Assembly: GCF_009831105.1 (NCBI RefSeq)
Contig: NZ_WUUQ01000007.1
Coordinates: 45,170 to 77,169, forward strand
Source of the DNA: Copranaerobaculum intestinale
GTDB taxonomy: Bacteria > Bacillota_I > Bacilli_A > Erysipelotrichales > Erysipelotrichaceae
Reading direction: 5' to 3'
Length of the DNA stretch: 32,000 nucleotides
The notes below the pieces were generated by a model. That model was not told where the DNA came from. It saw nothing but the letters and a program-made list of their open reading frames with translations, and searched no databases. The translations under genes were made by a program, and so were the position numbers. Each line of letters begins with the position of its first letter. Position 1 is the first letter of the stretch. Positions 5,780 through 20,918 of this stretch are shown one piece after another.

Positions 5780-6285
5780 TTCATGTTGTATTATATGAAC
5801 CGGAAATTCCTCAAAATACCGGTAATATCATGCGTACCTGCATGGCTGCCAATTTGAAGCTGCATCTCATCGAACCGCTTGGCTTTTATCTCGATGAAAA
5901 GCATGTTCGCCGCGCCGGCATGGACTATATCAAGGATTTGGATTACCGTGTTTATCCCAACTGGGAAGAATTTCTAAAGCTTCATCAAGACGGTGAATTT
6001 TATTATATGACACGATATGGTAAGAAAGCACCCTCGCAGTTTGACTTCACCCAGGCGAAACGTGATATTTATCTGGTTCTCGGCAAAGAAAGCACCGGGA
6101 TTCCAAAAGAAATTCTGTCTCAGCATCTGGACCGCTGTATGCGTCTGCCGATGGTACCGAACGCGCGTTCCTTAAATCTTTCCAATTGTGCCGCGATCAT
6201 TGTGTATGAGGTGCTGCGGCAGCTGGATTATCCGGGATTATGTACCCATGAAACACTGAAGGGTGAGGACTGGCTTACTCAATGA
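5776..6285 (+). CDS. trmL: tRNA (cytidine/uridine-2'-O-)-methyltransferase TrmL (SpoU/TrmH family, YibK type)
   Basis: VVLYEPEIPQNTGNIMRTC, LVLGKESTGIP and SLNLSNCAAIIVYE (knot region). 4-nt overlap with rdgB. Confidence 0.85.
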   Translation: MIHVVLYEPEIPQNTGNIMRTCMAANLKLHLIEPLGFYLDEKHVRRAGMDYIKDLDYRVYPNWEEFLKLHQDGEFYYMTRYGKKAPSQFDFTQAKRDIYLVLGKESTGIPKEILSQHLDRCMRLPMVPNARSLNLSNCAAIIVYEVLRQLDYPGLCTHETLKGEDWLTQ

Positions 6286-6863
6286 CCATGGATCGCTTCG
6301 TGGATACCCCATCAAAGCGGCGCTGCGCGTGGGTAGTATTAACTGCCTGTTTGCTTTTTGCGGGGGCAGTTCAAAACGGAAAGCTGGGACTGTCGATCCT
6401 ACCGGTCGAACGTTATGATGAACTGTTTGAGTTGCTGTCATCAAGAACCCTTTCCGGCAGTTATCTATCACGTACGATTTATACCGTGATCTCTCAGGCT
6501 TCGATTACGCCCTGGATCATTGCAAAAGCCGTGTTTGCCTCGCTGCAATTTTTTGAGATTTCGTTGATTGTGATCACGGGCGGTTTTCTCTTTATGAAGG
6601 GAAAGGACAGTAAGAGTCGGCGATGGCTGTATGTTGGTTTAAGCAGCTTTGTCATATTGCTTTTATTATGTATTTGGTGTGTCTGTCAGGGGTTATCTGC
6701 TGTATCCTTGAACATGGTAATCGATCAGCTCCATATCATTGGATTGCTTCTGATAGTTCAAAGCGGTTTTCAGATGCTTACATGTCTTGGCGCGATTTAC
6801 TGTTGTATCATGTATGACTATCTGCCGGCAATGAGAGTTACGGTAGAATATATCGAAGAATAA
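6282..6863 (+). CDS. Membrane protein of unknown function
   Basis: ATGA overlap with trmL. 4-5 hydrophobic helices. No motif recognised. Confidence 0.55.
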   Translation: MTMDRFVDTPSKRRCAWVVLTACLLFAGAVQNGKLGLSILPVERYDELFELLSSRTLSGSYLSRTIYTVISQASITPWIIAKAVFASLQFFEISLIVITGGFLFMKGKDSKSRRWLYVGLSSFVILLLLCIWCVCQGLSAVSLNMVIDQLHIIGLLLIVQSGFQMLTCLGAIYCCIMYDYLPAMRVTVEYIEE

Positions 6864-6866
6864 AAA

Positions 6867-6900
6867 AACAAGACGCTGATTGGTTCAGCGCCTTGTTTTA
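6867..6900. terminator. Bidirectional terminator
   Basis: AACAAGACGCTGA-ttgg-TCAGCGCCTTGTT (one mismatch), with an A-tract before and a T-tract after. Confidence 0.7.
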
Positions 6901-6902
6901 TA

Positions 6903-7145
6903 TTAGAACTCTTTCAGGTTCTTTAAGTTTGTGCTTTCGTCTCCGTCGTTCATACCGCGGATGTGACGTGCGCCGTCACGGCCGGTGAAAGGCAGAGCGT
7001 TTTCAATCAGGCCCTGTTCAACTGCTTCTAAAGCCTGTTCGTAGTCATACACTTTGCCAGTGCTGGATTTGAATTCTTTCAAAGTTCCATCAGAATTACG
7101 GCGTGCAGCTACGAAGCGTTCTTTTTTCTTGCTGTCTTTTTTCAT
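6903..7145 (-). CDS. Small soluble protein, DUF3892-like
   Basis: 80 aa. The pattern VAARRNSDGTLKEFKSSTGKVYDYEQALEAVEQG...GRDGARHIR...DGDESTNLKNL matches my recollection of the DUF3892 family. GGAGG Shine-Dalgarno. Confidence 0.6.
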   Translation of the reverse strand: MKKDSKKKERFVAARRNSDGTLKEFKSSTGKVYDYEQALEAVEQGLIENALPFTGRDGARHIRGMNDGDESTNLKNLKEF

Positions 7146-7208
7146 TTTTCTTTACCTCCTGACATTATTGTGAACAGCACCTGCATATTTATACACTGGA
7201 GGGATACT

Positions 7209-7898
7209 GTGAATTTTTGGAAATATCATGTGAACGGAAATGACTTTCTTTTGGTCCATCAAAAATCAAATATCAGTGAGAAACAAGGAATCCTGCTGTG
7301 TGATCGGCATAAAGGAATCGGAGCAGACGGCATTCTAATTGTGCGAGTTCACAAATTTGAAGTTTACTATCGCCATGTGAATGCGGACGGCAGTCATGCG
7401 GCGATGTGCGGCAATGGTATACGGTGTGTAGGGCACTGGTTTATGAGTCGCCATAAGTTGGATCGCTGTACGGTTCATATTGATGAAAGAGCGTATTCGC
7501 TTAGAATGAGCGGCGGGAATTTTGTAACACTGATCAGTGATATACCTGAGATATTGGGACGAAACCGCTACAACAGTGGGGTTGTGCATCTGATATCCTC
7601 CCGTTATCAGGCTCGAACGGATGCCAATGTGGATGTAGTTGAATATAGGGATCCACTGCATTTCCATATCCGTACGATAGAGCTGGGAGTAGGTCCGACT
7701 TTATCCTGCGGCACCGGTACCATGGCTGCATTTTATCACGGATACCGACATGGATATCTGCATCGTATCGCTATTGGAGCCAGTCCGGGCGGGGATAATC
7801 TGCTGCGTTGGGGAAACAACCAAATCTATATGTCGGCAATCGTTCATCCGGTTTTTCATGGTACCTGGATGGAAACCGAAAACGATAGCTTCCGATAA
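7209..7898 (+). CDS. Diaminopimelate epimerase-like protein (DapF fold, short and divergent)
   Basis: NGNDFLLV, the first catalytic-Cys motif MCGNGIRCV and the second SCGTGTMAA. GGAGGG Shine-Dalgarno 5 nt before GTG 7209. Only about 229 aa. Confidence 0.65.
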   Translation: MNFWKYHVNGNDFLLVHQKSNISEKQGILLCDRHKGIGADGILIVRVHKFEVYYRHVNADGSHAAMCGNGIRCVGHWFMSRHKLDRCTVHIDERAYSLRMSGGNFVTLISDIPEILGRNRYNSGVVHLISSRYQARTDANVDVVEYRDPLHFHIRTIELGVGPTLSCGTGTMAAFYHGYRHGYLHRIAIGASPGGDNLLRWGNNQIYMSAIVHPVFHGTWMETENDSFR

Positions 7899-10411: not shown

Positions 10412-11608
10412 TCAGGTAATGTTGTGTACCCGCTGTTTTGTACGTGAGATGACGATACCTAACAGGAAGAATACGATCACAAACAGCCACTGGATGCCAT
10501 AACCCTGTAAAAGAGAATGCCAATTAGCGATGCTTGCGGAGTGAAAGTGGGGAAGCAGGTCATTGATCTTCACATACCAGTAATTCGGCAGAAACGCTGC
10601 GACATCCAGAACCTGTTTGGATAATACGGACTGCGGTACAAAGTTACCGCAAATAAAGCAGCTTCCTAATGCAAAAACATTCGTAATGCCATTGATCGCT
10701 TCCATATTATTGCGGACTCCCCTCAGCAGATTGGCAGCCATAAATGCAAAGCTGAGAGCTACCATTGTCATAGTAAAGGAATTGCCGGCATATAACAGCC
10801 CCTGCATAGTCAGCATTTCCTTGGTGTTCAGCAGAATGCTCAAAAGAGTAAACATCAACCAGATTCCTGTACCAAACACAATATTTGCTAAAAACAGCTG
10901 CAGATTGAAGGAAGTGTTGGAGATCGGCGAAGCAAGTGTACGAATATGCACTTCACTCTTGAAGATGCTCATCATGATACTGGCGCCTATTAAGATCATA
11001 AGGGATAAAAGGATATAACCCAGAGTATTGAAATACATAACATTCATTTCCTGCTTGAAGCTTAAATCCTTTTGGTCGACCATGGAGATGACTGCATGCT
11101 GCTGATAGACTTTTTTGATCTTTTTATCAATTGCTTGATAGCTTAAGCTCGGAGCTGCTTTTTTGTAGCTGGAAACGGAGCTGAGATAAGACTCCACCTT
11201 CTGCTCCGCTAAAAAAGCTTCAGTCGCATTTGCTTTCTTCTGAGTAATCAGCTTGAAATTACTGTTTTGTTCGAGAAAATGTTTCTCAAAGCCTTTGGGA
11301 ATCATTACGATATAATTGACTTCATTGGCAAATAAGGCATCTTTTAGTGCTTCCTCATTGGAATCAATAGTTTTTACCTTCATCGTATGTTTCAGATAAT
11401 TGGTAAAGGATCTGCTTAAATCGGAGTGATCTTGGTCGATATAGGCGATGCTGATCACGGTATTGCGAAACGGCGTATTGGCTTTATTAACATCTTTGGT
11501 ATTGATTGTAGACAAGCCAATCCAGATAATTGAAAAAATCAACAGATAGGTAAATAAGGTAGATCGCTTCTTATTCAGGATCTTCATATACAGTTTAAAG
11601 ACTTGCAT
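10412..11608 (-). CDS. ABC-2 type exporter permease (N-terminal TM, large extracytoplasmic domain, C-terminal 5-TM bundle)
   Basis: Topology read from hydrophobicity. Paralogous to the upstream permease. 14-nt overlap with it. Confidence 0.75.
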   Translation of the reverse strand: MQVFKLYMKILNKKRSTLFTYLLIFSIIWIGLSTINTKDVNKANTPFRNTVISIAYIDQDHSDLSRSFTNYLKHTMKVKTIDSNEEALKDALFANEVNYIVMIPKGFEKHFLEQNSNFKLITQKKANATEAFLAEQKVESYLSSVSSYKKAAPSLSYQAIDKKIKKVYQQHAVISMVDQKDLSFKQEMNVMYFNTLGYILLSLMILIGASIMMSIFKSEVHIRTLASPISNTSFNLQLFLANIVFGTGIWLMFTLLSILLNTKEMLTMQGLLYAGNSFTMTMVALSFAFMAANLLRGVRNNMEAINGITNVFALGSCFICGNFVPQSVLSKQVLDVAAFLPNYWYVKINDLLPHFHSASIANWHSLLQGYGIQWLFVIVFFLLGIVISRTKQRVHNIT

Positions 11609-12716
11609 ATTTTTTCCTCCTTAAGCGGAAGTAAGCGCATAGGAAACATATTGCTGTAAAGATCAGCAGTGAGATAAAATCATTCCAGAACCGAGGCCCT
11701 CCGCCGTAATAATAAACCGAATACAGTGCATCTGTGATCATATTGACCGGATTGATCTTAGCCAGCCAGGGAATCGTAGTTTCCACAAAATATTTAACAT
11801 TTACAGACATCATGCCTGACAGGAAGGAACACAGCAGGGTAAAGGCAGTTAATATCATGTTATTTACACCATAATTTTTGGTGGCATAACAGCTGGTAAA
11901 CATGCCGAGACTGATTCCGGCGCCTGATCCGGCAAAACTGATCAGCAGGATCATCCATAACTTATCGCCATAGCTGACGCCCAGCACGAATGAGGTATAC
12001 GCAATTAATATCATAATAATGGTAAAGTGAATGATGATATCAATCAGGATATCCACCATCATCGACCGCAGATGATGGGTGGGAGCTACACTGACCCGTG
12101 TGCCTTGAGGAGATTGATCGGCTCGCAGATCATAAATGCTGCGTTGTCCCCAATAGCCGCCCATTAAAGAGACCATACCAATAATGGTATAAAAGCTGAC
12201 GGCAAACAGCTGTGCGCTTTCTTCCTCGCTCTTTTGGATAAATGAAGTATCCTGCATCAGAGCCTTTTCAATCGCTTCCTGCGAAGCGCCCTGCTTAATT
12301 AAATCCATTATCATGGCTTCCTTTTGAATATAACTGTCCATGAATGTTTTTAATACGGATTCATTCATTCCGCTTCCCTCAACGAGCAATTTTTTCTTAT
12401 TGACGATGACACCGTCAACTTTATCATCCTTTAAGAGCTTTTCCGCCTCACTCTTTGATCCGGTCAGGGTAATGTTGAGGATTGCGTCCTCACCCGTGCT
12501 TACTTGCTTCAGCACGGCTTGAAAAGCTGTGTCGTTTTGATAGTCGGTATTGTTTACGACTGCCACATGTATAGCTTTAAAGGTATGATCGGTCAAAGCT
12601 GGCTTTAATGCTAAAGAGAAAAAGGTTGCCAGCATGAGCGGAAAGCATAGAGACCAGAAGATCAAGGTTTTATCAAGCAGCAGACATTTGAATCGATACA
12701 TCCAAGAATATCGCAT
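11595..12716 (-). CDS. ABC-2 type exporter permease (paralog)
   Basis: Same architecture as 10412..11608. It follows the ATPase gene by 10 nt. Confidence 0.75.
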   Translation of the reverse strand: MRYSWMYRFKCLLLDKTLIFWSLCFPLMLATFFSLALKPALTDHTFKAIHVAVVNNTDYQNDTAFQAVLKQVSTGEDAILNITLTGSKSEAEKLLKDDKVDGVIVNKKKLLVEGSGMNESVLKTFMDSYIQKEAMIMDLIKQGASQEAIEKALMQDTSFIQKSEEESAQLFAVSFYTIIGMVSLMGGYWGQRSIYDLRADQSPQGTRVSVAPTHHLRSMMVDILIDIIIHFTIIMILIAYTSFVLGVSYGDKLWMILLISFAGSGAGISLGMFTSCYATKNYGVNNMILTAFTLLCSFLSGMMSVNVKYFVETTIPWLAKINPVNMITDALYSVYYYGGGPRFWNDFISLLIFTAICFLCAYFRLRRKKYASL

Positions 12717-12726
12717 AAATTCCCTC

Positions 12727-13659
12727 CTAATCTCTTAACTCTTTCCCGGTGATTTCCAGGAATACATCATTCAGGGTCGGTTTTTCAGAATAAACTTTAC
12801 CAAATGCGACAGCTTCCCTTTGAAGTGTTTCCATTAAATGAAGCAAATTGTGATTACCGCCGGTGAATTTCGCTTCCAGTGTTTCTCCCTGGTAATTGCA
12901 TTCATAAAGATTTTCCAGCTGCTTCAGCTGAGCAATTTGCGGTGCGGTGATATGAATTTGCTCAACTGTAATTTTTTCTTTCAGGGCAATCATGTTTTTT
13001 AACTGTTCCTTAGTACCCTTCGCAATTTGTTTACCCTTATCCAAAACAATAATACGAGTGCATATTTGTTCTACTTCCTCCATGTAATGAGACGTATAAA
13101 TAATTGTAGTTCCAAGTGCGTTCAGTTTTTTGATTCCCTCCAAAATGGCATTACGGCTTTGCGGATCTACTGCAACGGTTGGTTCGTCCATGATTAATAA
13201 ATCCGGCTTATGGGCAATTCCACAGGCGATGTTTAAGCGCCGAAGCAAACCGCCGCTTAGCTTGGACGGCCGATATTTTGAAAATTCCTGCAATTCAACA
13301 AAACGCAAAGCTTCTTCAACCAGTTGTTTCCGTTTTGCTGATTCTTTGACATATAAGGAACAGAAATAATCGATATTTTCATAAACCGTCAGTTCTTCAA
13401 AAACAGCAACGTTTTGAAGAACCACCCCGATCCTGCGTTTAAGATCATAGGCATCCGGCGCCATTGGCTGATCAAACAGGGAAATGTTTCCCTTGTCATA
13501 TTGCAGCAGTGCCAGAATACAGTTGATTGCGGTAGTCTTACCGCTTCCGTTGGGTCCGAGCAAGCCTAAGATTTCTCCTTTTTCCACATCCATATTCAAG
13601 TGATCAAGCGCGAGCAGATCACCATATCGCTTTACTAAATTATCTACATGTACAATCAT
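12727..13659 (-). CDS. ABC transporter ATP-binding protein (ABC-2/DrrA-like, with a C-terminal accessory domain)
   Basis: Walker A GPNGSGKTT, signature LSGGLLRR, Walker B LLIMDEPT, H-loop TSHYMEE. AAGGAGGA Shine-Dalgarno. Confidence 0.9.
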   Translation of the reverse strand: MIVHVDNLVKRYGDLLALDHLNMDVEKGEILGLLGPNGSGKTTAINCILALLQYDKGNISLFDQPMAPDAYDLKRRIGVVLQNVAVFEELTVYENIDYFCSLYVKESAKRKQLVEEALRFVELQEFSKYRPSKLSGGLLRRLNIACGIAHKPDLLIMDEPTVAVDPQSRNAILEGIKKLNALGTTIIYTSHYMEEVEQICTRIIVLDKGKQIAKGTKEQLKNMIALKEKITVEQIHITAPQIAQLKQLENLYECNYQGETLEAKFTGGNHNLLHLMETLQREAVAFGKVYSEKPTLNDVFLEITGKELRD

Positions 13660-13734
13660 ATGGTATCCTCCTTAATGGTTATATCATAAAGGATCAGCAA
13701 TTTTGATAACAGTGATATTTCTCGTGAATTTATA

Positions 13735-13746
13735 TGACATTTGTCA
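13735..13746. promoter_or_regulatory. Perfect inverted repeat in the divergent ABC / two-component intergenic region (candidate operator)
   Basis: TGACA-tt-TGTCA, about 75 nt upstream of the ABC ATPase start on the minus strand. Confidence 0.3.
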
Positions 13747-13818
13747 CAAAAACTGAGTTCCTGTGATTGTGCAGGATGCTTTGCCATGGTAAACTGATTG
13801 CATATAGAGGATGAAGAA

Positions 13819-14895
13819 ATGACACATTTGATCAACCGCATGGTTTTGTTTTCAGTTTGTACGCTCCTATTAGTAACGGGAAATTTCGATCGGCTGCAGA
13901 TTATCCCGATTTTGTTTTGTCTGATTGTAGAACTGTATGAGCTTTACCGTCCGGATCGTAAGCTGTTTATGATAAACTATGTCGGATTCTGTATGCTGAT
14001 GATTCCGTTTCCGCAGCTGGCCTTTTTTCTGCCGCTGCGTATATATTCGCTGATTTCCTGGGATTTTCGAATTGGCTTATTAGGTTTTCTGGAGCTGCTT
14101 GTCATATATCCGCATGTCAATATTTTGCAGATACTCATTTTATCACTGATCAGCAGCCTGCTTGGTTTCTATGCGACAAAGCAGTTGGATATGCGGCAGC
14201 GGTTTCTGCAGTTTCGCGATACGCAAAGTGAGCAGGAGGCGGTTCTGAAACGTCATAATAAAGAATTGTTGGAAAAACAGGACTATGAAATCTATGCGGC
14301 CACTCTGCATGAGCGAAATCGCATAGCCCGTGAAATACACGATCATGTAGGGCATCAGCTTTCCAGCAGTATCCTGCAAGTAGCAGCACTTTCGACGATC
14401 GAACAGGATGAGCAGATGAAAGCGCATCTTAACACACTGAAACATACTTTGGATCAGGCGATGAATGATATTCGAAGCTCGGTACATGATCTGTATGATG
14501 AATCCTTCGATTTACGATCCAGTATTGAAAGACTGCTAATCCAGTTCTCATTTTGTGAATGGGATCTTGATTATGATGTACATAGCAGCTTGGAACGAAA
14601 ATTGAAGTTCAGCTTTATTGCCATTATCAAGGAAGCGCTGTCCAATGTCAGCCGGCATTCAGATGCAACGATGGTGCATATCCGTGTCATTGAGCATCCG
14701 GCGCTGATTCAGCTGCAGATCGATGATAACGGAAGCGGCATTCAACCGATACAGGAAGAAGGAATTGGACTGCTGAATATGCGGGATCGGGTAGCCAAGC
14801 TAAATGGACGCATTCAGATTAGCCAGCATGAAGGCTTTCATATATTTGTCAGTGTAGACAAGGAGGAGAAAGAGAATGAGAATTATCATCATTGA
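13819..14895 (+). CDS. Sensor histidine kinase, HisKA_3 (NarX/LiaS/DesK-type) with a multi-TM sensor and no obvious extracellular domain
   Basis: H-box ERNRIAREIHDHVGHQLSS, N-box KEALSNVSRHS, G-box DDNGSGI..GIGLLNMRDR. GAGGA Shine-Dalgarno 8 nt before ATG 13819. Confidence 0.85.
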   Translation: MTHLINRMVLFSVCTLLLVTGNFDRLQIIPILFCLIVELYELYRPDRKLFMINYVGFCMLMIPFPQLAFFLPLRIYSLISWDFRIGLLGFLELLVIYPHVNILQILILSLISSLLGFYATKQLDMRQRFLQFRDTQSEQEAVLKRHNKELLEKQDYEIYAATLHERNRIAREIHDHVGHQLSSSILQVAALSTIEQDEQMKAHLNTLKHTLDQAMNDIRSSVHDLYDESFDLRSSIERLLIQFSFCEWDLDYDVHSSLERKLKFSFIAIIKEALSNVSRHSDATMVHIRVIEHPALIQLQIDDNGSGIQPIQEEGIGLLNMRDRVAKLNGRIQISQHEGFHIFVSVDKEEKENENYHH

Positions 14896-15505
14896 TGATG
14901 ACCATCTGGTATTAAATTCTTTGAAAATGATTCTGGAAGCACAAAGCGATATAGAAGTAGTCGCGATCGGTGATGATGGAGAACAGGCGATTTCCCTGTA
15001 TCAGCAATATCATCCGGATGTATTGCTGATGGATATCCGTATGCAAAAAGTCAATGGTTTAGAGGCAAGCATGGCAATATTAAAGGCAGACAGCCAGGCT
15101 AGAATCCTGTTATTAACAACATTTAATGATGATGAGTACATTGTTCAGGCATTGCGGCTTGGGGTCAAGGGATATATCCTGAAACAGAATTATGATGTGA
15201 TCTATCCGGCTTTGAAAGCTGTCTGTCAGAATCAGCGCGTCTTTAATGATGAGATCATGATGAAGCTCCCAGACCTGATGAAACGAAGTGATCATCCGGA
15301 TTATGAGAAATGGCAGTTGAGTGATAAAGAACAGGAGTTGATTATCCAGGTAGCAAATGGTGCCAGCAATCGGGAGATCGCGAATAATCTTTGTCTCAGC
15401 GAAGGTACAGTGAGAAACTATTTGAGTGTCATAATGGAAAAAGTACAGGTACGTGACCGTACCCAGTTGGCGATATTTTATTATCAGCATATGTGGAAGC
15501 AGTAA
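14876..15505 (+). CDS. Response regulator, NarL/LuxR (FixJ) family
   Basis: Receiver domain (IIIIDDD..., VLLMDIRMQ, LLLTTF, KGYILK) plus a LuxR HTH (LSDKEQELIIQVANGASNREIANNLCLSEGTVRNYLSVIMEK). 20-nt overlap with the kinase gene. Confidence 0.9.
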   Translation: MRIIIIDDDHLVLNSLKMILEAQSDIEVVAIGDDGEQAISLYQQYHPDVLLMDIRMQKVNGLEASMAILKADSQARILLLTTFNDDEYIVQALRLGVKGYILKQNYDVIYPALKAVCQNQRVFNDEIMMKLPDLMKRSDHPDYEKWQLSDKEQELIIQVANGASNREIANNLCLSEGTVRNYLSVIMEKVQVRDRTQLAIFYYQHMWKQ

Positions 15506-19295: not shown

Positions 19296-20567
19296 ATGAA
19301 GGTTGAATTAAGTATAGAAGACAAGCTTGAATTAGCAAAGATTTTTAAAATTCATCGAAATCATCTTGGCTGTACTCAGAAAGAATATATTCAGGATAGA
19401 CAGGGAATCCCAGTCTGTTCCATCAGCACCTATAGCCGGCTGGAAAATGGAATACCGATAAAATGTGATGAAATTTATGAAATACTGCTGTCAATGCGGA
19501 TGCATAAAACATTCAATTATCGATTTGATATACGCGTGCGGATGAAGAAAGACTTTCACCTGCTATATCAAATGATCGAAGCATATAATCTGCCGGAAGC
19601 GAAAACGGTTTTGTATCAGATTATGGCAGAATTGAAGAAGCAGGGAGATTTTATTATGAATGCCTGCTATCTGGCAGTGCTTACCCAGATCGAAGCATAT
19701 TATTTTCAGCAAAAGCCATTACAGCTGGCTTTGATTGATTGGGATATACTGAGCATATTTGATCGATATACGCAAGAAATATTAATTGATCTTTTATTTA
19801 AGGATGTGCTGCGAAGCAAGAAATCAATGCGGGAAGTTAACGTGTATGCGGAAAAATTGGAAATATCGAAATCAAAGACTTCTCTAAATTATTTGAATCG
19901 TGTGCTGCTTCATTATTATAACGATGAAATGCTGAGTGCCTTCCTAGAGCTGAAAACACTCATTCGGTATTTTGATACGCATGCTTTATTCAATCGACGG
20001 CTGGACGCCTATGATATTACGCTGTCGCTGTATGTGAATGTTCAGCCGCAGAATATTCCTGATTTATTACTTGAATATCATCGATTTGTTCAGGAGCATA
20101 AAGCCCAGCTGCATCCTAAGAAGCTTCGTCAAAGTCTTTATAATCAAGCAATGATTTTTCTGGAGATGCAAGAAGAAGCGGAAGCCTTGAAGCGCCTATC
20201 GCAAATAACGGATCGTGATGATGATCTGACGCTTAGAAAAACTGTTATATCCTGTTATTTATCATCGCATATGGATCTGCCGGCAGCACCGCTCAATGAC
20301 TTAAAATTTTCTTCTGTCAGTAACCCCGGAGCGCTGGCGCTTTTTACATTTTATCAGCACAAACAGGCCGGCGCGTCCTTTGCCGAGCTGGAGATGCTCG
20401 TACAGGAACAGATCTTAAGCAGCATCGATCCGGATGATGAAATTTTGATGGAAATTTTAAAAGAAGAAATTATGAAGCTGGCAAAAAGCAGTCATGAGAC
20501 GTATCTGCTTCAGCGATTTCAGCGGCTGCGTGATCATCACAGGTTTGAAAAAAATTCTGAAAACTGA
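19296..20567 (+). CDS. XRE-type HTH regulator with a long helical-repeat (TPR-like) C-terminal domain; RNPP-like peptide-sensing regulator candidate
   Basis: N-terminal HTH region (LAKIFKIHRNHLGCTQKEYIQ...STYSRLENG) followed by about 350 aa of helix-rich sequence. 423 aa in total. A small secreted-peptide gene lies immediately downstream. Confidence 0.65.
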   Translation: MKVELSIEDKLELAKIFKIHRNHLGCTQKEYIQDRQGIPVCSISTYSRLENGIPIKCDEIYEILLSMRMHKTFNYRFDIRVRMKKDFHLLYQMIEAYNLPEAKTVLYQIMAELKKQGDFIMNACYLAVLTQIEAYYFQQKPLQLALIDWDILSIFDRYTQEILIDLLFKDVLRSKKSMREVNVYAEKLEISKSKTSLNYLNRVLLHYYNDEMLSAFLELKTLIRYFDTHALFNRRLDAYDITLSLYVNVQPQNIPDLLLEYHRFVQEHKAQLHPKKLRQSLYNQAMIFLEMQEEAEALKRLSQITDRDDDLTLRKTVISCYLSSHMDLPAAPLNDLKFSSVSNPGALALFTFYQHKQAGASFAELEMLVQEQILSSIDPDDEILMEILKEEIMKLAKSSHETYLLQRFQRLRDHHRFEKNSEN

Positions 20568-20625
20568 AAATACCTTTCTTAAAATGATGATTTCATCAAA
20601 TTTAGAGAGGTATTTTTAATTTTTC
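20568..20625 (+). terminator. Nested inverted repeat directly after the regulator stop (weak terminator and/or operator)
   Basis: Outer arms AAATACCT (20568-75) and AGGTATTT (20608-15). Inner perfect palindrome TGATGA-tt-TCATCA (20585-98). Followed by TTAATTTTT. Confidence 0.4.
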
Positions 20626-20671
20626 CCGGTCTTTGTCCTTTCCTGATAGGCTGAACTCGGGAGGTACGGTC

Positions 20672-20803
20672 ATGCGATTAAAATTTAAGATTGCAGTGCT
20701 GATCGGTGCACTAGTTTTGGGAATCGGTGCAGCATTTCAGAGTCAAGCTGCAAATCAGCCGGAAGTAGCCGCAAAAGGGCGATCTTCACTTATCATTCTT
20801 TAA
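20672..20803 (+). CDS. 43-aa Sec-signal pro-peptide (candidate signalling-peptide precursor), not in the ORF track
   Basis: GGGAGG Shine-Dalgarno 7 nt before the ATG. Product MRLKFKIAVLIGALVLGIGAAFQSQA/ANQPEVAAKGRSSLIIL has a basic n-region, a hydrophobic core, an AxA-like site and a 17-aa tail. It has its own terminator. Confidence 0.55.
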   Translation: MRLKFKIAVLIGALVLGIGAAFQSQAANQPEVAAKGRSSLIIL

Positions 20804-20819
20804 ATCAACGGGGGAAACA

Positions 20820-20848
20820 GAAAGCGGATATTGTTCCGCTTTTTTATA
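20820..20848 (+). terminator. Rho-independent terminator after the peptide gene
   Basis: AAAGCGGA-tattgt-TCCGCTTT followed by a T-tract. Confidence 0.7.
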
Positions 20849-20918
20849 TTTGATCATGTGATGTGTATTTCCTGTTAAAATAGGATATAATAGGTATAAC
20901 AAAAAGGAAGGTGCTGAC

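Follow-up and report, generated by a model that had tools for sequence, protein, structure and literature searches.

A putative RRNPP-type peptide quorum-sensing cassette of a previously undescribed subfamily in Copranaerobaculum intestinale

A 32-kb stretch of DNA (hereafter the window), which was assigned to the human gut bacterium Copranaerobaculum intestinale DONG20-135 (Erysipelotrichaceae) by taxonomy look-up, was analyzed for a regulator gene and the small gene downstream of it. The regulator is encoded on the plus strand at 19296..20567 by an open reading frame (ORF) of 423 amino acids (AA), is 100% identical to the hypothetical protein GSF08_11070, and combines an XRE-like helix-turn-helix (HTH) with a predicted superhelix of about 18 helices, i.e. 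about nine motifs resembling tetratricopeptide repeats (TPR). Its direct neighbor on the same strand, separated by a gap of 104 nt, is an ORF of 43 codons at 20672..20803, which the NCBI lists as hypothetical protein WP_283809464.1. An initial annotation had described a receptor ORF, a hairpin, the 43-codon ORF, its Shine-Dalgarno sequence and a terminator, and all of these were found in the places it had given. Judged from sequence comparison and a structural model, the two genes probably form a chromosomal one-component peptide quorum-sensing cassette with a cytoplasmic receptor; it would be of the RRNPP type, which is well known from Gram-positive bacteria, and belong to a previously undescribed subfamily.

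The small ORF starts with ATG at 20672, stops at 20801-20803 and encodes MRLKFKIAVLIGALVLGIGAAFQSQAANQPEVAAKGRSSLIIL. The Shine-Dalgarno sequence GGGAGG (20659..20664, plus strand) is located 7 nt upstream of the start codon and is identical in the orthologous contigs L001 and L003; the promoter of the gene is weak and σ70-like. A longer version of 56 AA beginning with TTG at 20633 was rejected, as this start has no Shine-Dalgarno sequence and is not conserved in L001. Codons 1-26 (20672..20749) would encode a Sec signal peptide. Judged by rule, the n-region MRLKFK (charge +3), the hydrophobic core of 16 residues and the small residues at -3/-1 (SQA|A) fit such a signal, in agreement with the initial annotation; in addition, DUF6520 was weakly matched in its signal region (E 0.15). 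The 17-AA tail ANQPEVAAKGRSSLIIL (20750..20800) is predicted to be exported and to contain the mature pheromone in its last 7-8 residues (GRSSLIIL, 20777..20800). An intrinsic terminator of the peptide gene, a stem of 10 pairs followed by a T run, lies at 20819..20844 on the plus strand and is conserved in the orthologues.

The small ORF was called as a gene and is conserved in three orthologous contigs (L001, L002 and L003), where the whole neighborhood is kept and the 43-codon ORF is found at the same place. These contigs represent two orthologue types, and their peptide product is MRLKFKTAVLIGALVMGIGAALQSQTANQPEVAAKGRSSLIIL. Between the window and the orthologue, 13 codons of the small ORF differ, nine of them synonymously and four non-synonymously. 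All four AA changes fall into the signal part, and the codons of the 17-AA tail show four synonymous changes and no non-synonymous one. This codon pattern indicates selection on the protein. The natural variants P0052 and P0053 differ in the signal part alone, and for four natural variants all six variable AA sites lie within the first 26 of the 43 positions (P = 0.038), the tail being invariant. The small ORF is a real gene, and its peptide tail is under purifying selection. Conservation in relatives, on which the initial annotation had made its proposal depend, was thereby confirmed: orthologues with receptors of 78% identity to that of the window retain the ORF, and its tail is unchanged there.

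A long hairpin spans the stop codon of the receptor gene (20560..20623, plus strand) and is followed by a T-rich run. Its arms of 31 nt (20560-20590 and 20593-20623) fold at -23.9 kcal/mol (z = -4.8 vs. shuffles). L001 and L003 preserve the pairing; one pair has changed in a compensatory manner, and two other changes are compatible with wobble pairing. We read the hairpin, which separates the receptor gene from the peptide gene, as an intrinsic terminator or an attenuator acting on the former.

For the receptor, a word-indexed homologue search returned three proteins, with two orthologues of 78% identity each, and its profile version returned seven. When 1.84 billion representatives were searched exhaustively with phmmer, 21 relatives were obtained at E ≤ 1e-3; these are mostly 401-436 AA long, ~20-26% identical to the receptor and aligned over nearly the full length. 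Sixteen full-length family members of 401-436 AA were combined in alignment A3. The most conserved part of the family is the HTH DNA-binding domain (about residues 1-75; 19296..19520, plus strand). All residues invariant in A3 (R21, C41, S42, T45 and Y61) are found within the N-terminal 65 residues, the N-terminus of the alignment carries the XRE-type HTH pattern Q..FI...G..ICS..TYS.IENG..IK.D.IY, and the HTH signature conserved in the family is R..L..TQ.....(x)CS..TYS.IENG. In comparison with the orthologue, non-synonymous changes were found in 8 of the 75 codons of this domain vs. 83 of the 348 codons in the remaining receptor gene. Among XRE-type HTH proteins, DBP48 (E 0.03) and HipB (E 0.4) could be aligned with the N-terminal profile, and Pfam HTH_3 was matched by 2 of the 16 family members (E 0.005). 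Concerning the repeats, some family members match TPR_1, TPR_2, TPR_7, TPR_8 or TPR_12, with E-values down to 6e-8 for TPR_1 and TPR_2, and the A3 profile matches consensus TPR proteins among the PDB sequences via a single canonical repeat (residues 279-312). A genome scan using the HTH domain alone detected four loci. Two of these, L016 and L017, contain true family members; L018 and L019 encode shorter, unrelated HTH-TPR proteins and were discarded.

The receptor was modeled with AlphaFold2. Using A3 as input, the mean predicted local distance difference test (pLDDT) was 90.0 and the predicted template modeling score (pTM) 0.85; this 16-sequence run superseded an unusable one made with three close orthologues alone (pLDDT 49). 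The model is an all-helical superhelix, in which helices at residues 7-24, 28-31, 43-50 and 58-69 are followed by about 18 more. For comparison, 18 helices of NprR make up nine TPR motifs (PMC3763537). When the model was searched against the PDB with Foldseek, ranks 1-22 were occupied exclusively by RRNPP receptors, namely Rap (phi3T, pLS20), RapF, RapJ, RapI, RapH, NprR, PlcR and ComR, and many of these structures had been solved with bound pheromone. The phi3T Rap with bound pheromone was matched at E 6.7e-4 with template modeling (TM) scores of 0.52/0.58 over 374 columns. TM scores of the Rap and NprR matches were ~0.5-0.59 over 360-385 columns; NprR chains, 5dbk and 4gpk being among the top matches, gave 0.47-0.58 in the apo and NprX-bound states. 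Generic TPR proteins (APC/C, COP9, proteasome lid) followed from rank 23 on with lower TM scores. A search of BFVD, which may serve as a rough negative control, returned generic TPR proteins alone (TM ≤ 0.36). The model thus agrees with the RNPP-type fold which the initial annotation had suspected.

In NprR, Asn275 of helix α-11 bonds the peptide backbone, and this residue is reported to be conserved in all RNPP proteins (PMC3763537). In the window receptor, Asn283 (helix 274-290) is an Asn in 10 of the 16 family members, and further Asn-rich columns are 201 and 231. Judged by position alone, Asn283 is suggested to be equivalent to Asn275 of NprR. No significant sequence similarity to the NprR, Rap, PlcR, AimR, Rgg, ComR or PrgX subfamilies was detected using Pfam, NCBIfam and an hmmsearch of the PDB. 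From the model and these profile searches, the receptor appears as a fold-level relative of the RRNPP receptors which stands outside every named subfamily.

The gene contexts of ten receptor homologues and of the four genome-scan loci were inspected. Downstream of four distant receptors (P0008, P0015, P0025 and P0026), which are ~20-24% identical to the window receptor and are surrounded by different genes, a signal-peptide-like ORF of 36-45 AA was found on the same strand, preceded by a Shine-Dalgarno sequence. The peptide of receptor P0008 (L009 5441-5551) is MKRLFLMGALLSAGLIAANGLPVLLGYVGRSALFLA, that of P0015 (L013 4635-4772) is MKKLFVSALCGLCLMGAFVCAAQPAQGDSTTNGVALSRSRIAWRG and that of P0025 (L014 4431-4562) is MKKLVISALCGLCLFGAFVCTSQPTADAAEKTALSRVRVGVRM; the peptide of P0026 (L015 4655-4786) has the same sequence as the L014 peptide. 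A C-terminal GRS[SA]L motif is common to the peptides of the window and L009. By a peptide profile search, 25 representatives of 36-46 AA from independent assemblies were obtained; no usable match came from metagenome and viral contigs when these were scanned for the signal-peptide motif of the peptides. The 22 MKKL-type peptides have a near-invariant signal peptide, MKKLVISALCGLCL[FM]GA, then a variable spacer, the conserved motif (V/T/L)A(L/I)SR at -12 to -8 and, finally, seven hypervariable residues. Within the P0038 cluster (P0054-P0064; 90% identity), residues 1-36 are invariant and all four variable sites are found in the last seven positions (H/A at 37, N/T/I at 39, G/A at 40 and S/A at 43; P = 2.8e-4), resulting in at least eight forms of the tip (HANGVTS, AATAVTS, HATAVTS, HAIGVTS, AANGVTS, AANGVTA, HANGVTA and HATAVTA). 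This looks like a standing pherotype polymorphism in one species. A conserved leader for export and processing, joined to a diversifying C-terminal tip, is the expected look of pheromone precursors with pherotypes. When its residues are counted back from the C-terminal end, the window peptide likewise shows V-A at -12/-11, and its last 6-8 residues directly follow a basic one; RSSLIIL or GRSSLIIL is therefore predicted as the mature signal. One of the two is probably correct, the boundary being one which we infer from these positions.

The signature published for RRNPP systems comprises five properties: a pro-peptide of 10-100 AA, a Sec signal, a receptor of 250-500 AA, TPRs and direct adjacency of both genes (PMC10075063). 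All five were found for the window pair, the Sec signal being judged by rule, and the same signature characterizes the candidate subfamilies of RRNPP_detector, although neither the organism nor the locus tag nor the peptide sequence of the window pair was found in the text or the available supplements of that study (PMC10075063). The order of receptor and adjacent peptide gene is the same in L001-L003, L009, L013, L014 and L015.

Among the known systems, NprR-NprX is closest to the window pair in domain plan and size, and Rap-Phr is closest in structural superposition. NprR shares with the window receptor the XRE-type HTH followed by ~18 helices, a length of ~420 AA and a downstream gene on the same strand for a Sec-type pro-peptide, from the C-terminal part of which a mature signal of ~7-8 AA is derived (predicted in the case of the window). 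The NprX pro-peptide has 43 AA. In contrast to these likenesses, sequence similarity to NprR-NprX is not detectable, the host belongs to the Erysipelotrichales and not to the Bacillales, the peptides are unrelated (RSSLIIL in the window vs. SKPDIVG in NprX), and the window pair has no adjacent protease target resembling nprA. Rap-Phr systems supply the best structural matches (phi3T Rap 8rsv, RapF 4i9c, RapJ 4gyo and pLS20 Rap 6t3h), and they resemble the window in the order receptor then pro-peptide, the Sec-exported pro-peptide and the C-terminal active peptide. Furthermore, the conserved basic residue close to the beginning of the predicted mature peptide ([GS]-R-x-x-x) recalls the Arg in Rap-bound pheromones such as SRGHTS and ERPVGT (PDB titles). 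However, Rap proteins have an N-terminal 3-helix bundle, which binds response regulators, and no HTH, whereas the window receptor has a DNA-binding HTH; sequence similarity to Rap-Phr is missing, and the window pair is not on a mobile element. PlcR-PapR and TprA-PhrA likewise consist of an XRE-HTH plus TPR receptor and a downstream Sec-exported pro-peptide, with the C-terminal heptapeptide as the signal, occurring as pherotypes. PlcR structures (2qfc, 3u3w) are among the fold matches but are much shorter (target length 280-284), superpose poorly (TM 0.15-0.31) and show no sequence similarity.

In a survey of RRNPPA receptors, the seven subfamilies were found only in Bacillales and Lactobacillales (PMC9765709); RRNPP receptors with experimental support have, in addition, been reported for Clostridium and Paenibacillaceae (PMC10075063). 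A literature search found no RRNPP system described for Erysipelotrichaceae. We read the subfamily of the window pair as new and as centered on Erysipelotrichaceae.

The reading given in the initial annotation is supported to the extent that computational evidence reaches, and it is likely that the two window genes constitute a functional receptor-pheromone pair. We infer the following scheme for export, the site of processing, re-import and binding, in which the receptor may act as an activator or as a repressor. The 43-AA product would be exported through Sec and its signal peptide removed around SQA|A. The 17-AA tail would be trimmed extracellularly to the C-terminal ~7-8 residues, RSSLIIL or GRSSLIIL. 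At high cell density, an oligopeptide permease would re-import the peptide, which would then bind to the concave groove of the receptor's TPR superhelix. Binding would alter the oligomeric state or the conformation of the receptor and, by this means, DNA binding of the XRE-type HTH.

Several observations weigh against an assignment to the RRNPP systems. The window receptor alone gave no significant match in Pfam or NCBIfam; its sole Pfam match, TPR_6 (E 0.04), remained below threshold with 15 bits vs. a cut-off of 26.3. The label 'XRE-HTH + TPR' is weak for this protein taken alone, and is based on family-level and structural evidence. An hmmsearch of the A3 family profile against all PDB sequences detected generic TPR proteins and no RRNPP receptor. 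The Foldseek E-values are modest (~7e-4) and the root mean square deviation is ~7 Å. The case for homology of the window peptide to the MKKL-type peptides is weak, and consists of the shared architecture, VA at -12/-11, the basic residue near -7 and the homologous receptors. About half of the inspected family members have no adjacent peptide gene: context inspection found no adjacent signal-peptide ORF for P0004, P0009, P0006, P0010, P0011, L016 and L017, and the contig of P0007 was too short to judge. The initial annotation had asked whether a peptide ORF always accompanies the regulator. This was true for P0008, P0015, P0025 and P0026 and not for the family as a whole. Receptors without a propeptide are common in the known RRNPPA subfamilies, and a peptide was found beside just 40% of the NprR homologues (PMC9765709). 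The peptide-less receptors weaken the case without refuting it.

A further point on the negative side concerns L014 and L015, the loci of P0025 and P0026, which have an identical peptide gene next to receptors of 54% identity. Comparing L014 2704-4430 with L015 3001-4654, the flanking genes are ~99.7% identical and receptor codons 1 to ~88 (HTH) 100% identical. In the TPR domain and the intergenic region, nucleotide identity is ~55%, and it is 100% again from ~95 nt upstream of the peptide gene. Hence, only the sensor domain was replaced, the peptide staying as it was, and the two do not co-vary in lock-step. Three explanations may apply: the peptide is read by both TPR variants, one of the strains is a mismatched 'eavesdropper', or the assemblies are chimeras. 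For the co-variation of receptor and peptide which the initial annotation had envisaged, the observations point both ways. The tips are hypervariable, and they differ between the P0015 and P0025 systems, the receptors of which are 41% identical; the L014/L015 pair does not follow the rule, and within the clade of the window, a receptor difference of 22% goes along with an unchanged peptide tail.

The main alternative is a receptor which does not read its neighboring peptide. The HTH-TPR regulator would sense a foreign peptide, a protein partner or a metabolite, and the small peptide would be a regulated output or an unrelated neighbor. The swapped TPR domain next to an identical peptide gene in L014/L015 speaks for this explanation, and the members without a peptide gene, together with the 40% figure for NprR (PMC9765709), point in the same direction. 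However, the order receptor then peptide recurs beside four distant receptors in different neighborhoods, and within the peptide family it is mainly the C-terminal heptapeptide that varies. Such tip-focused variation is hard to explain unless a specific receptor reads the tip, and it therefore counts against this alternative, which we consider unlikely.

A second explanation sees no signal in the 43-AA product. It would be a small protein, either anchored in the membrane or secreted, that acts together with the NfeD-SPFH (flotillin-like) module, or else a small toxin or bacteriocin-like peptide. The small ORF is indeed located directly upstream of nfeD-SPFH in the window and in the orthologues, and both ends of its product are hydrophobic (signal core and SSLIIL). 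Nevertheless, the peptide gene has its own terminator and nfeD its own promoter with a perfect TATAAT, adjacent genes for modification, immunity or export are missing in the window, and the homologous peptides in L013, L014 and L015 are found upstream of an ECF-transporter gene. As the latter replaces nfeD in L013-L015, the receptor is the only constant neighbor of the peptide, and we regard a role with NfeD-SPFH or as a toxin as improbable. Least probable is that the small ORF is unexpressed and only looks conserved because it lies over a cis-regulatory RNA region: nucleotide identity is high (82-93%) throughout the intergenic region, so that little can be concluded from the mere fact that the ORF is kept, but the codon pattern (9 synonymous vs. 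4 non-synonymous; tail 4 vs. 0), the strong Shine-Dalgarno sequence at ideal spacing and a 25-member protein family with coherent architecture from independent assemblies all speak for a translated gene.

If the receptor-pheromone pair operates as proposed, the likeliest direct target of the receptor is the peptide gene itself, which lies behind the terminator hairpin and has a weak promoter. The AsnO-like gene and nfeD-SPFH, proposed as targets in the initial annotation, could not be upheld as such, given that this neighborhood is not conserved in other lineages; control of the adjacent nfeD-SPFH operon by the receptor is possible but unsupported. A candidate operator, TTTCCTGATAGG (20639..20650, plus strand), is located just upstream of the Shine-Dalgarno sequence of the peptide gene and is identical in L001 and L003. 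A second site of the form TTTCCTG...ATAGG (20868..20884, plus strand) is found in the nfeD promoter region beside the perfect TATAAT. Both are leads only. The pattern TTTCCTG(N0-8)ATAGG has two matches in the 32-kb window vs. 0.03 expected, for a pattern which was defined post hoc after both sites had been seen. The second site carries two substitutions in L001 and L003 (TTTCCGGTTGAAATAGG), and its conservation is therefore imperfect. The two sites may represent a shared operator.

A more far-reaching proposal, which we consider doubtful, is that the pair founds an Erysipelotrichales-specific RRNPP subfamily in which TPR domain and heptapeptide tip diversify as separate recombining modules, and that the Copranaerobaculum system couples cell density to the NfeD-flotillin operon via the TTTCCTG...ATAGG sites. 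If the modules did recombine separately, strains could switch between 'self-talk' and 'eavesdropping'.

The genes flanking the pair are of chromosomal type (VanZ/RDD, asparagine synthase, NfeD, SPFH, bactofilin and S9 peptidase), and tblastn found no homologue of the window receptor in phage and plasmid collections. The chromosomal setting assumed in the initial annotation is consistent with both results. The other flanking genes, likewise of chromosomal type, encode an ECF sigma factor, an Fe-only hydrogenase and a HisKA_3/LuxR two-component system, the last together with an ABC-2 transporter; opp genes were not found within the 32 kb. Compared with L001 (receptor at 6001-7272), the receptor shows 78.5% AA identity, the VanZ/RDD protein 78.1% and the neighbors 86-97%. 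With 22% of its residues differing from the orthologues, the receptor is encoded by one of the least conserved genes of the neighborhood. On the nucleotide level, identity between the window and L001 is 63% upstream of the receptor and 93% in the spacer between the peptide gene and nfeD.

Erysipelotrichaceae are a common family of human gut commensals. The pair would give a testable route into cell-cell signaling of these poorly studied gut anaerobes and brings ready-made natural heptapeptide variants. In addition, its receptor would be a new scaffold, divergent in sequence, with which the reading of short peptides by different TPR grooves could be compared. The concept of RRNPP signaling remains unchanged; the pair would add a new subfamily to a well-known kind of system, useful for the biology of gut commensals.

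Some family members without a peptide gene have lipoprotein genes downstream of the receptor. In the P0004/P0009 branch, one to three DUF1307 lipoprotein genes are found at this place (L004 5408-8394, L011 3482-3952 and probably L017 4399-4839). The downstream ORF of L017 encodes 146 AA, a length as in L004, and its assignment to DUF1307 is probable; L016, which is related to this branch, has no DUF1307 gene downstream. The DUF1307 lipoprotein genes are possible regulated targets of the receptors of the P0004/P0009 branch. A PrcB_C lipoprotein gene follows P0010. The idea that DUF1307 and PrcB_C lipoproteins act as long pro-peptides in the peptide-less subfamilies was dropped, as their C-termini share no motif.

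P0010 and P0006 have radical SAM genes in their vicinity, and P0004 and P0009 have a MiaB-like gene. A link of the family to radical SAM enzymes and ribosomally synthesized and post-translationally modified peptides (RiPPs) was rejected, since types and orientations differ between the loci and none is found in the window. Directly upstream of P0010 (L010 2204-3927) lie a highly basic ORF of 32 AA and a gene for a radical SAM/Fer4_12 protein of 431 AA, an arrangement which was not seen at the other loci. We take this layout to resemble that of radical SAM RiPP operons controlled by quorum sensing.

Elsewhere in the window (10412-15505), the minus strand carries genes for one ATPase and two permeases of an ABC-2 type transporter, and beside them the plus strand carries those for a HisKA_3 histidine kinase and a response regulator of the LuxR/GerE type. 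Such a layout is typical of modules for sensing and detoxification of peptide antibiotics. Synteny with L001 covers both plus-strand genes and the neighboring gene for the ATPase, at which point the L001 contig ends.

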